64,000 nt of DNA from Prorocentrum cordatum (GCA_963575745.1 CAUYUJ010000192.1:124001-188000), one strand, 5' to 3'. Shown: positions 25,677-29,735, numbered from the stretch's first letter. A program made the numbers and translations. Notes: generated by a model from the letters alone, not told the origin.

Positions 25677-28600
25677 ATGAAGCTTGTGCTATGCTTGTGC
25701 ATGTTCGTGGACATCGTGGATGGCCACGTCCCGCACGTGGCGCCTGTTGCACATCCTCCGCCTCCTCCTGCACGGATTGTCGGGCGAGGACGCGGCCGAG
25801 GCGTCGTTCCAGGGCGCGGCCTCGATGCAGGCGGTGGCAGAGGCCGAGGCCGTGGCAAAGGCAGGGAGCGAGGGTTTGTCACTTCGGATGCGACGAAATC
25901 TAAGATGAGAGTTGCGCACCAGACACGGCGAGCTGATGCTGCAGTTGCCGCTGTTGCCCGTGGTCTCGTCACGGATGGAGAACGTATGGTTTCAGAATTG
26001 TTGAGCGGGGCCTACGAGCCCATGGAGCGCAACAAAAAACACAGTTGTCGTTTCCACACCAGAAGGAGCCGTTCCGATCACTGTGAACAGGCGGAACGCT
26101 ACGCAATCGGATATGATCAAATTGATTACTTCGCATGCAGAGGAACAGGCAAAAGGTCTGCGACGGTGGGCCAGTGATGATGCCAATCGTTATTGTAAGT
26201 ATCTGCATTTTGTGAACGTGTTCGATGACGCCTCGATGTGGATGTCGGTTAAACCTTCGGATGCGCTGCTGAACGAGATCAGTCGCTCATGTACTCCAGC
26301 TGTGGCTAAACGACTTGAGAAAAGACGTCGGAAGGGTGGGATGGTCCATGCACTTGTGCTCAATCTGCCCGAGACGATCTTCAAAATTTTCGACGTTGAG
26401 CGGAATGGCATAGCTGGCACCACGGTTCTTTCACCCGCTCAGCCCATGCCGATGGCAAACTATGCCACAGTACTGGAACGATGGAAGAGATGGTCGATCT
26501 GCAATGGTGGGGATCCTGGAGATAGCGTCGGCCCGTCGTCAGTTCTCAAGGGTGTATTTGGAATACCTTGTTGGAAGAGCCTCGCGATGGTGCGCGGTTG
26601 CCTCGCGCTCAACAGTAATTTAGTTGCCAAGGTTGAGGCGGCCCTCAGACATCAGCGAGAATCGCGTCGCGGTCAGGCCGATGAGGATTTCGTGCCAACC
26701 ATTTTCTCAACAAGTTGTTCGGGGCACAGTTGTGTGCTATGCTTAAAGCCGATCTTACGCAGCTTTGAGGGTTTGTCTTCGTTCGTCGTTCGGTGCGGGC
26801 ATTTGTGCCCGTCCTGGAGGTCGGCCGCTCGGCATGCATCAGCTGTGGACGTCGAGCTGGAGACGTGGTTCAGATACAAGCGAGTGTTGGTGCCACCACC
26901 TGGATCCGACGAGTGGCGATCTTACGCCAGCAATGTCTTGAAATTAACAGGCTACGACTTGACGGAAGAACAACGAGAACAAATCCCTTTGTATGACAAC
27001 GGCCAATGGTACGGCCAAGATCTCGAGATAATTCATTGGTGTTTGCCGTCTGGCGGTTGTGGACGGTCGGCTCACGGAGCTTTGCTCAAAATGAAGGCTG
27101 CATTTCATTTGTCATGTGGTCCGTCATGCCCTCTTGCACTGGAGTACCGTTGGAAACGCATGGAGAAGGCGAATGCGTGGTGTTACCGAGGGCAGGCTCA
27201 GCGTAACATTCTCTTTAGAGCATTCAAGCGTGCTTACGATCGCAAGGCCGTTGAATCAGCTGAGAAAGAATTGTCCGATGCTGCTGTGAGAGGCGAATCT
27301 GTGCAGTCTGGTTCCAAGCAGGTGGTGAAGGCAGGCCTCGTGATCAAGCACATGGAGCAGAACCCCTTCGGCTGGCAGAATCTGAAAACATTGGTGATCC
27401 AATCTCCATTGCAATCTTATTTGAACTACGTCTTCAAGGGCGAGGGGCTCACCACTGCATTCACGCGAGCTGCTAGTGCAATCCCTGGCGACGGCCATAT
27501 CGTAACCACGTCTGCGATAGGGGATCTGTTGCCGATGATGAGGGGGGCTTGCAAATATAACCTGGAAGTTTTATCTGGCGAGCTCGGTCGTCGCGCCATT
27601 GCCGAATGCGCTGGCGCCCTCGGTGACTACGGCCACCCGCTGTGGACAGGCGCATCGTGGACTCGGGGTCTGAAAAATATTGCCGGCTTGATTCGGGCCC
27701 CTTGGGGGAGGTGGAAGGACTAGGAGGGAAAATGAGGAGAAGGAGGAGAAGGAGGGGGAGGTAGATGAGGGGGGATATAACGAGGGGGGGGAGGAAGTGG
27801 AAGAGGGGGGGAGGAGGCGGAGGGCGATTGCCCGCGCGTGCCACTTCTGCTCTCCCTCACGGCGGGATCAGTCCCTCTTGGGAGCGGGAGGCGAGGAACA
27901 TGGAACAGGGGGCAGGGGGCATGGAGAGCGGTAGGGCGAGGGCAGGGGGTGGGGGGGAGGAGGGATGGGAGGATTTGTTTTTGCTTGCGGCCTCGCAAGG
28001 ACAGAGACGGAGCAGTTTGACATGTCCTGCAATATCCTGAAGACCATGGCCATGACGTGGCGCCGCTTAGTGTTCCAACACGAACAACCCAAATATAGAT
28101 TGCTGCGCGTGTGCGAGGTCGGCGTGACCACCGATGCCGACATCGATGGCATCGTTCGACCCTTGACGGACATGGGTGAAGGCTGCAGCGATTGCCTGGG
28201 CGACTTCAGCGAGATCTGGCTGAAGAGATTGAGCGACGACGGCACGAAGATGAAGGCGCAGCAAGCCCTCCGATTGCACGTTGCAGGTACACCGTCATCG
28301 AGCGTCTCCGTTGAGATGAAACATCTCTTAGGCCAGGAGGTTCGGCGAGCTAGGAGCAGGGGCGTGGCGTGCAGGCCCGCAGAACTGGGCAAGCGGACTT
28401 ACCACAGACTACTGCTACGCAATATCGAGAACAAGACTGACTACGTGCTCAGACGCGCCCCCCCGAAGGGATCCTTGAATGCGTTCTGCAAGCTGGCCAG
28501 CAAACAAGCTTTGCAGAAGACTCGTGTTCGAGATGCGGCTCGAGAGACGAGACGACTTATGACGAAGACCAGGGGGGGGGCCTACGAGATCATCTGCCTG

Positions 28601-29735
28601 GTCGATGTACAAGAAAACGCACTTCAACCCGACGGTCAGGCCCTGTACACCAGAAGGTGGTCGAGAAATCAAACGACTGAGGGCTGCTTTCGAAGCGCTC
28701 GCCCCTGCGGACGTGGCCCACTACCAAGCGATGGCCGACAACGTGTCTACTGCCAGGGCCGTCAACCACGATGAGAACGCTCAGCGTCATGTCATGGCAG
28801 ACGGCTGGAGCAATGCAGATCTGGGAGGGCACAGCGCCAAGAAGACAGACAGGCATGCTGCATTCAGAACTGCATTGAAGCTGGTGCAAACCCATCCTGC
28901 GTGGAAATCTGGGGCACAAATCGATGCGCCGTGGATGGCTTCGAAGCCGAGTTTGGTAGACCTGCCAGCGACGAGGGACAGCGCCAGTGCGAAGGCATCG
29001 AGGATATTTTACCACAGCGACGTGCCGATACCGAACCCTGCAGGCACAGCACAACCTAGACTACCATGCTGCATGCTGCATGGCGGTCTGTGTAAACGCA
29101 GTGATGGCATCGAGCGGATCAAGAACTTTGTTGCGAATTTCCACTTCGGCGTTCGAGACCACGTGCTTCCATTACTCGTGGAGATTGGTGGTGATGGTGG
29201 GGGGGCATCAGAAACGCACTTGCTCTTGGACCGAGTGGGCAGGGGGGAACTTCGCGCATTGCTCAGAGTGTCGTCATCGAGTCCAGCGTCCAAGATATAC
29301 GATGTTGCGCCCGAACCTCCAGTCAAGAAGGCGGAGGCGCCAAAGGATCTTCCTCCTGGTCCAGCTCTTGGTGGCCCCGCGGACGACGCAGACTTTGGCA
29401 TTGGAGGACTGGGCAGAGCTGGCATCTCCGACTTCGAAACGGCGCCGTCGAGTCGCGCCAGATGCTTCTTGTGCAACACGCCTGTTGAGAAGGGGATGTG
29501 GCATTTCAGGTACCAACTCAAAGCATCGAACTCTTTGAGGGATACCCGCGTGGTTCATGGCGCCTGCGTCGGCGCTCTCCCGCCTTCCACGCGAGCCGTA
29601 GATTATCGCGCTGTGCAGGTGTTCCTTGGTCGGCCAGGGTATCCAGCAGAGGCGGCCGCCATGCTGGACACGGCGTCGGACTTTTTGAGGCCGCCCGACG
29701 GCGGGGCTGCAGCTTCAGGCAGCGCAGCGGCATGA
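25677..29735 (+). pseudogene. hAT-like DDE transposase with HMG-box-like region and C-terminal PARP-type zinc finger (interrupted; ~1,230 aa when repaired)
   Basis: Motifs in hAT order: FDDAS (26221), RGCLALN in place of D-x4-N (26596), CSGHSCVL CxxH (26716), PLALEYRW (27151), TPSSSVSVEMKH catalytic E (28313). Four track ORFs join by removing one base from A6 (26034-26039), one from G9 (28572-28580), and the segment 27666-27999. Confidence 0.7.
27666..27999 (+). other. Probable intron or insertion in the transposase gene
   Basis: GGA-rich non-coding block ending TTTGTTTTTGC..CGCAAG|G. Removing it restores the frame (...GASWTR-TETEQFDMSCNILKTMAMTWRRLV). The donor would be non-canonical (CG|GG). 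Confidence 0.55.

Follow-up and report, generated by a model that had tools for sequence, protein, structure and literature searches.

A probable degenerate copy of an unnamed family of hAT-like transposases with an HMG box and a PARP-type zinc finger in Prorocentrum cordatum

Introduction

At positions 25677-29735 of a 64,000-nucleotide (nt) stretch of Prorocentrum cordatum DNA (GCA_963575745.1 CAUYUJ010000192.1:124001-188000; the whole stretch is called the window here), four open reading frames (ORFs) follow each other on the + strand. Are they pieces of a single gene and, if so, what kind of protein did it encode? The initial annotation of the locus had joined them into a hAT-like transposase fused to an HMG-box-like segment and a PARP-type zinc finger. 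The analysis presented here indicates that the feature is, in all probability, a degenerate copy belonging to a large, unnamed eukaryotic family, in which a hAT-like DDE transposase is combined with an HMG box and a PARP-type finger. The intact family protein is likely to measure about 1,300-1,400 amino acids (aa), its RNase H-fold core being followed by the HMG box, an alpha/beta domain, an acidic linker and the finger. The hAT-like core is of a known kind; new are the set of fused modules that bind DNA structure, unreported on such a core, and the family itself, which is unnamed in public annotation. At the level of titles and abstracts, the literature searched contained no report linking a transposase with a PARP-type finger, nothing relevant on new transposon superfamilies and, among the matches listed, none in which hAT is paired with an HMG box or a finger of the PARP type.

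hAT elements have short terminal inverted repeats and an 8-bp target-site duplication, and a BED zinc finger is common among them, but not universal. The Hermes-type reaction consists of nicking, formation of a hairpin on the flanking DNA and integration, hairpin intermediates being a property of hAT enzymes and of their RAG-like cousins. In known cases, DNA bending is supplied by host HMGB proteins; HMGB1 assists RAG1/2 and Sleeping Beauty in trans.

Results

One protein in four open reading frames

From stop to stop, the + strand ORFs occupy 25545-26177 (ORF1, frame 0), 26005-27723 (ORF2, frame 1, 572 aa), 27935-28774 (ORF3, frame 2) and 28563-29735 (ORF4, frame 0), in surroundings that are GC-rich (about 55-59%) and have eukaryote-like features. 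The four are co-linear pieces of one predicted protein of ~1,230 aa, the features of which are as follows.

25677-26039, +, N-terminal region, frame 0; the first ATG (MKLVLCLC) is at 25677 and a family-type 'MF' start at 25701
25782-25802, +, Arg/Gly-rich stretch of the N-terminal region; GRGRG runs also occur in the family N-termini (14-member alignment)
26034-26039, +, A6 homopolymer, change from frame 0 to frame 1; the ORF1 part (...ERNKK) runs to 26039, the ORF2 part (KNTVVV) from 26035
26035-27667, +, catalytic core, frame 1, from the core hidden Markov model (HMM) and the AlphaFold (AF2) model; includes most of the all-alpha insertion domain
26221-26241, +, first Asp pair, FDDASMW
26590-26619, +, VRGCLALNSN, site of an Asp to Gly change; the presumed second catalytic position is the Gly codon 26596-26598
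26716-26733, +, CxxH motif, CSGHSC
within 27043-27069, +, site of a lost conserved Cys, in LPSGGCGRS
27142-27159, +, YRWK motif, EYRWKR
27668-28004, +, GGA-rich 337-nt stretch bounded by GT (27668-69) and AG (28003-04)
28005-28571, +, frame-2 segment comprising the last part of the insertion domain plus the helix of the putative third catalytic residue (E-helix HMM)
28304-28339, +, E-helix motif VSVEMKHLLGQE
28572-28580, +, G9 homopolymer, change from frame 2 to frame 0
28584-28769, +, HMG box (HMG module HMM, ORF4 residues 8-69); motif PTRSSAWSMYKK..HYQAMA at 28581-28736
28890-29306, +, first half of the middle alpha/beta domain; LPCCMLHGGLC at 29061-29093, LPLLVEIGG at 29166-29192
29418-29675, +, C-terminal PARP-type zinc finger, predicted; FETAPSSRARCFLC at 29433-29474, CFLC within 29463-29474, HGAC at 29556-29567
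29733-29735, +, stop codon of the last frame

Two kinds of comparison join the pieces. When the full-length relative P0005 (1,353 aa, 37% identity to the window core) is aligned to the window by tblastn, its residues 98-642, 637-791, 828-1066 and 1251-1344 fall, in order, on 26044-27666, 27989-28456, 28563-29270 and 29400-29675. Five module HMMs, built from 14 full-length relatives, match the window ORFs in the family order, with E-values of 3.4e-137 for the core, 5e-34 for the E-helix, 1.8e-10 for the HMG box, 1.1e-28 for the middle domain and 5.8e-27 for the finger. Since the modules match in family order and P0005 is co-linear with the locus, the window pieces form one family protein, far beyond what chance would give. 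The single frame of about 1,230 aa that was first proposed for the locus is thus recovered, with its frame changes at A6 and G9 and its 337-nt GT..AG insert, and the motifs listed with it lie where they had been placed.

At the position of the A6 run, relatives read through without a break. Excision of the 337-nt stretch fuses frame 1 (...SWTR) in frame with frame 2 ((E)TEQFDMSC), exactly where relatives run continuous, and the tblastn matches of P0005 and of a second relative, P0001, end at 27666 and restart at 27989/28010. The stretch is akin to other GGA-rich tracts in the window; by its sequence, it would be either an intron or a low-complexity insertion.

A large family with a conserved domain order

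A word-indexed search with ORF2 returned three relatives only. With a profile of four core sequences, hmmsearch reached 1,127 proteins at E<=1e-3, 732 at E<=1e-10 and 268 at E<=1e-30, counted as cluster representatives at 50% identity. The family is deeply divergent, at about 20-45% identity, and contains many truncated forms; full-length members measure 1,290-1,400 aa, and Pfam gathering scores are attained by none of the 23 long members scanned. The nearest named relative, P0004, is labelled Pyramimonas sp. and is 95.8% identical over 192 aa, the remaining relatives coming from marine and metagenome assemblies. A scan of 185,579 prokaryotic species genomes gave one match, a 1,914-nt contig of a bacterial metagenome-assembled genome (L009), most simply explained as a mis-binned eukaryotic fragment, and a scan of IMG/VR gave no relative. 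With a single match on a short contig among the prokaryote genomes and none in IMG/VR, the family is therefore eukaryotic, not prokaryotic.

The family order is DDE core, E-helix, HMG box, an alpha/beta domain of unassigned fold, an acidic linker and a C-terminal C-x2-C-x27-H-x2-C finger. The alignment of the 14 members begins with an MF.. start and an Arg/Gly-rich N-terminus, continues into the core with its FDDASMW, KDNLxxN, CxAHS and YRWKG motifs, and then runs through a region ending at S..VERKHLLGQE, the HMG-like segment and a domain with C..GGLC, LPLL and GKG, to the acidic linker and a final APSsRAxCxxC...H..C segment. All five modules are found in this order in 11 of the 12 members of at least 1,250 aa, and the finger also terminates four N-truncated proteins from outside the HMM training set. 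Two of the eight metagenome loci, L002 and L004, are long enough to be informative and both have all the modules co-linear, in L004 within a single open ORF of 1,377 aa and in L002 split over two ORFs. The fusion of HMG box and finger to the core thus recurs in relatives, which makes it neither a one-off chimera nor the trace of a separate gene, the two outcomes that would have spoken against the initial annotation.

The N-terminal region holds a further short motif, HSxxT[KR]x[KR][ILM], which 11 of 62 family proteins have there and none has elsewhere in its sequence. It is similar to a DNA-binding motif, NUMOD3 (Pfam E 0.043 for one of 14 members); its form in the window, FVTSDATKSKM at 25875-25907, is degenerate.

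The catalytic core resembles Hermes

The AlphaFold model of ORF2 has a mean predicted local distance difference test score (pLDDT) of 89.4, and its strands and helices follow the order of an RNase H fold, after which comes a long helical domain. FDD is located at the first strand pair, the second-Asp position just after strand 190-197 and CxxH just after strand 232-237. In a search of 48,161 representative chains that is independent of Foldseek, Hermes came first (Z 7.9, root-mean-square deviation (rmsd) 7.6, 282 residues aligned), all other rows being matches to 50-100 residues of helix; in a second structural comparison, six Hermes entries occupied ranks 1-6, with Z 7.9-8.6. Foldseek with the ORF2 model alone gave weak matches, to Hermes, RAG1 and the P element (E about 0.06-0.3).

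Because the presumed third catalytic residue sits in ORF3, outside the ORF2 model, the relative P0014 was modelled as well. This protein has 1,142 aa and shares 31% identity with the core of the window copy; its single chain runs from the core through E-helix and HMG box to the middle domain (model pLDDT 87.5). Foldseek against the PDB placed Hermes at ranks 1-8, with E 1.2e-3 to 1e-2 and a probability of 0.99-1.00. In VIA comparisons, model residues 1-686 superimposed onto Hermes residues 117-609 with Z 10.3-12.7 and rmsd 4.4-5.6 over 366-383 residues; weaker matches were the P element (Z 6.3, 250 aligned), RAG1 (Z 5.0, 294 aligned) and Mos1 (Z 4.8). VIA against the 48,161 chains again had Hermes first (Z 12.6, 369 aligned), with HMG boxes and retroviral integrase cores next in line (Z 8-9); the integrase cores at this level confirm the RNase H fold. 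Against BFVD, the sole high-probability Foldseek match was a Pandoravirus protein named 'HAT family C-terminal dimerization' (probability 0.97). Lack of an RNase H-like DDE fold would have refuted the initial annotation; the models do have such a fold, with Hermes at the top of the structural searches. Such comparisons reach superfamilies with solved structures, and Kolobok, for example, lies outside them.

The order of motifs first read from the window (D, D, CxxH, YRWK, E, as in hAT) holds up in these Hermes-like models and in near-invariant columns of the family. The two residues of the first Asp pair are conserved in 73/75 and 72/75 sequences, the second D in 85/86, and the C and H of CxxH in 89/90 and 88/89. 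The R, W and K of YRWK are found in 101/101, 91/101 and 99/101 sequences, and the E and an accompanying H of the E-helix in 62/64 and 63/64, both being retained in the window. From the motif order and the strand positions in the model, we infer that the conserved D, D and E are the catalytic residues.

As modelled, the core is Hermes/hAT-like: a large all-alpha insertion domain interrupts its RNase H-like DDE fold, and D, D, CxxH, the Trp-containing motif and the E of a C-terminal helix succeed each other as they do in Hermes. Three independent searches each gave Hermes (2bw3, 4d1q, 6dww, 8edg) as the best match in structure, with Z up to 12.7 and 383 residues aligned. In contrast to this likeness, the structural alignments have only about 9-10% identity, HMMER and Pfam provide no link to Hermes, Dimer_Tnp_hAT or BED, and the family protein is about twice as long. 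Its DNA-binding modules (HMG box, middle domain and PARP-type finger) are C-terminal, whereas the BED finger of hAT proteins is N-terminal; Pfam scans found no BED finger in the window ORFs or in family members. The P element and RAG1/Transib are likewise DDE transposases with an inserted domain, but match clearly less well than Hermes, and neither a GTP-binding insertion nor RAG-specific modules were detected in the family. The likeness to hAT is one of predicted fold and motif order, and the family may sit either inside hAT proper or beside it. Single-sequence searches returned no family for the four raw window ORFs in Pfam (E<=1), nothing relevant for the core in the PDB with phmmer and no usable match for it in the ESM Atlas.

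The HMG box and the middle domain

A profile of the 14 proteins was compared with all PDB sequences, and each of the 12 matches at E<=1e-4 was an HMG-box protein or a PARP1 zinc-finger construct. NHP6A (7.7e-6) and TFAM (9e-6) were among the former, the PARP1 constructs matched at 2.2e-5, and the PDB matches also included the HMGB1 chains of RAG entries. In the P0014 model, residues 745-804 superimpose onto HMG boxes with Z 7.3-9.0 and rmsd 1.8-2.2 Å over 59-60 residues, at 14-33% identity. Pfam HMG_box is detected in five of the 14 members at E<=1, below the gathering score throughout. Judged by profile and modelled fold, the segment that had first been called HMG-box-like is a true HMG box at the level of the family. 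It shares the three-helix HMG fold with HMGB1-type helpers but differs from them in being built into a transposase-like polypeptide instead of being recruited from the host. The middle domain had no match in Pfam or the ESM Atlas and, as modelled within the P0014 chain, no fold match.

The PARP-type zinc finger

In the window, the zinc ligands are spaced as C-x2-C-x27-H-x2-C; zf-PARP is described by C-x2-C-x28-30-H-x2-C. When the C-terminal segments of 13 proteins are aligned with those of the window, L002 and L004, all 16 have these ligands, and just five columns are invariant, those of the ligands (C, C, H and C) and of one Gly. The profile made from this alignment matches two-finger PARP1 constructs in the PDB at 3.9e-11, the first finger (F1) alone at 7e-6 to 1.6e-5 and the second (F2) at 1.4e-3 to 3e-3. 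PARP1 fingers account for the 14 best matches, in which both ligand pairs align, and the match to PARP1 F1 spans 60 positions; DNA ligase III was reached at E 0.39 only. Pfam zf-PARP scores 14.4 bits (E 0.067) on the window piece alone and appears in five of the 14 members at E<=1, each below gathering. In the column of the 'LRM' Arg of PARP1, a backbone-grip residue, 15 of the 16 fingers of the family have Arg or Lys, and that of the window has His.

At the level of the family profile, the C-terminal segment is a true PARP-type finger by prediction, and this part of the initial annotation is borne out by a match in which every ligand is invariant. The family finger resembles PARP1 F1 and F2 and that of DNA ligase III in its ligands, and differs from them in that it occurs singly, at the very C-terminal end of a transposase-like protein.

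The window copy is probably decayed

In the window, Gly replaces the second putative catalytic Asp, and a second Gly, in LPSGGCGRS, replaces a Cys that is present in 100 of 101 members. The middle-domain HMM is matched over positions 1-134 of 224, the second half being absent. The sequence of P0004 departs from the window after 29306, and its continuation has no counterpart anywhere in the window (tblastn aligns residues 1-192 only). With two frame changes, Gly at the second Asp, Gly at the Cys and half of the middle domain, the window copy is at best a relic, and probably a degenerate and non-functional one.

One sequencing run, X1, is the only run to contain the region, in contigs that are 97-98% identical to it. 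An X1 contig has A at 28578 and 28580 within the G run and is a net 1 nt shorter over 28232-29130, so this relative may be in frame between ORF3 and ORF4.

Surrounding DNA

Just downstream of the gene, 29910-30559 and 30550-31188 form a head-to-tail duplicate of ~640 bp with 89% identity, each unit containing a GGA/AGG microsatellite. Upstream, 23540-24340 is a G/C-rich tandem array with periods of 10, 11, 21 and 32 nt, open in both strands as Pro/Arg/Gly-rich frames; the same array is present at about 11000-11500, 13470-14040, 14590-14870 and 63000. Its summed contig depth is 12,000-75,000, against 5-10 in neighbouring DNA, and it also occurs in runs of two other organisms, which makes it a very high-copy satellite shared between organisms. 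Runs X4, X7 and X17 match the window only at this upstream satellite and at GGA tracts.

Further downstream, 37375-38505 and 38506-40641 (+) are ORFs of 376 and 711 aa in one frame, with a single stop between them and no Pfam match; the 12 largest other ORFs of the window also lack one.

Two divergent relatives, L002 and L006, have perfectly palindromic arrays of 10/20-nt units (GGCCTTATAA / GGCCTTATAAGGCCCTTAAG) that closely flank the coding region (L002 1-130, 3026-3102 and 4422-4668; L006 1-134); in L002 one also lies between the two ORFs. The flanking arrays of the two loci are 92% identical, while their coding DNA is not aligned by blastn. These arrays could be cruciform-prone subterminal repeats or a host satellite of introns and intergenic DNA. 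As evidence for subterminal repeats they were set aside, the same array being present inside L002.

Discussion

Alternative explanations

Several results weigh against a degenerate copy from a family of hAT-like transposases. Around the window copy, the only inverted matches are G/C- and GGA-rich and of low complexity, so that neither terminal inverted repeats nor a target-site duplication were found there, and none were found around L004. The 64-kb window holds no second copy, and the contig depth of X1 over the element is 5-10, the same as in its flanks, meaning a low copy number in that run. Of the features whose conservation in other copies the initial annotation had asked about, the fusion is kept in relatives, and terminal repeats and a target-site duplication were not found at the two loci. 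Among sequence models, Dimer_Tnp_hAT (PF05699) and BED match neither 23 long members at E<=0.01 nor 14 members at E<=1, and the family profile finds no Hermes entry in the PDB, even at E<=10; despite the absent PF05699 match, the structural alignment extends to Hermes residue 609. No single member attains the gathering score of HMG_box (PF00505; best 22.7 against 25.4 bits) or of zf-PARP (PF00645; best 20.9 against 39.3 bits). Lastly, the two frame changes of the window, both in homopolymers, could be real mutations or assembly errors. Mobility of the family is nevertheless suggested by several lines taken together: the modelled fold, the conservation of the putative catalytic residues, a family that is large as well as divergent, and the presence of both intact and decayed copies.

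The strongest competitor is a hAT-derived host gene family, that is, a domesticated transposase at work in DNA repair, programmed rearrangement or chromatin, of which the window would hold a decaying paralogue. The negative result for terminal repeats and target-site duplication (window copy and L004), the X1 depth equal to that of the flanks, the probable intron and the conserved N-terminal start and domain order would all suit such a family, as would HMG boxes and PARP-type fingers, which are typical of host chromatin and repair proteins. We consider it unlikely, because 1,127 representatives with deep divergence and many truncated forms fit a proliferating element better than one host gene, decayed copies (window, L001 and L002) occur beside intact ones, and the putative catalytic D, D and E, together with CxxH, are nearly invariant; domesticated transposase copies often, but not always, lose their catalytic residues. 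Less probable still is that the window holds an intact, expressed gene, its frame changes being assembly errors and its short middle domain a splice or isoform difference. Both frame changes do lie in homopolymers (A6 and G9), the net 1-nt shortening of the X1 contig is the length change that would place ORF3 and ORF4 in one frame, and a protein 95.8% identical is present in a public protein set; against it stand the Gly at the second Asp (85/86) and at the Cys (100/101), the His where 15/16 fingers have Arg or Lys, and about 90 middle-domain HMM positions that lack a counterpart anywhere in the window. A neighbouring gene as the source of the HMG and finger segments, or a chimeric join formed locally, with the fusion as a read-through artefact, might be argued from the different frames of the window pieces, but is hardly credible given the same order in one frame in L004 and in 11/12 long family proteins, and the co-linearity of the window pieces with the single protein P0005. 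A decayed member of a transposase family thus remains the favoured explanation of the locus.

Possible mechanism

If the family works as its closest structural relative does, the core would carry out cut-and-paste transposition as in hAT enzymes, nicking the DNA, forming a hairpin on the flanking DNA and integrating the element, by analogy with Hermes. The C-terminal HMG box would bend DNA, the task that HMGB1 performs in trans for RAG and Sleeping Beauty. The PARP-type finger might bind nicks, ends or hairpins; it could hold the nicked or hairpin intermediate, and could also shield or signal the break left by excision. Finger, HMG box and middle domain could together stand in for the missing BED finger at the transposon ends, and HMG box and finger might between them do the DNA-handling jobs for which a BED finger and host HMGB proteins are used elsewhere.

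A bolder interpretation, which we put forward tentatively and regard as possible but doubtful, is that the family is a deep, unnamed hAT-like lineage of marine protists in which the HMG box and a nick- or hairpin-binding PARP-type finger have replaced the sequence-reading BED finger, the protein recognising or stabilising distorted DNA. Its substrates might then be the nicked or hairpin intermediates of its own reaction, palindromic ends prone to form cruciforms, of which the arrays of L002 and L006 would be examples, or lesions already present in the target, a proposal with the same doubtful standing.

Implications

A degenerate member of a hAT-like transposase family with these modules, if that is what the locus holds, would be part of a natural experiment in which transposition chemistry is coupled to the recognition of DNA structure, through an HMG box and a PARP1 break-sensing module of the transposase's own. 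It would also be a case of the PARP-type finger being put to use in proteins other than repair enzymes, and would offer a compact system for studying what such a finger reads. The family profile would annotate more than 1,000 divergent proteins that lack a Pfam name, and would flag their loci as transposon-derived in algal and plankton genomes.

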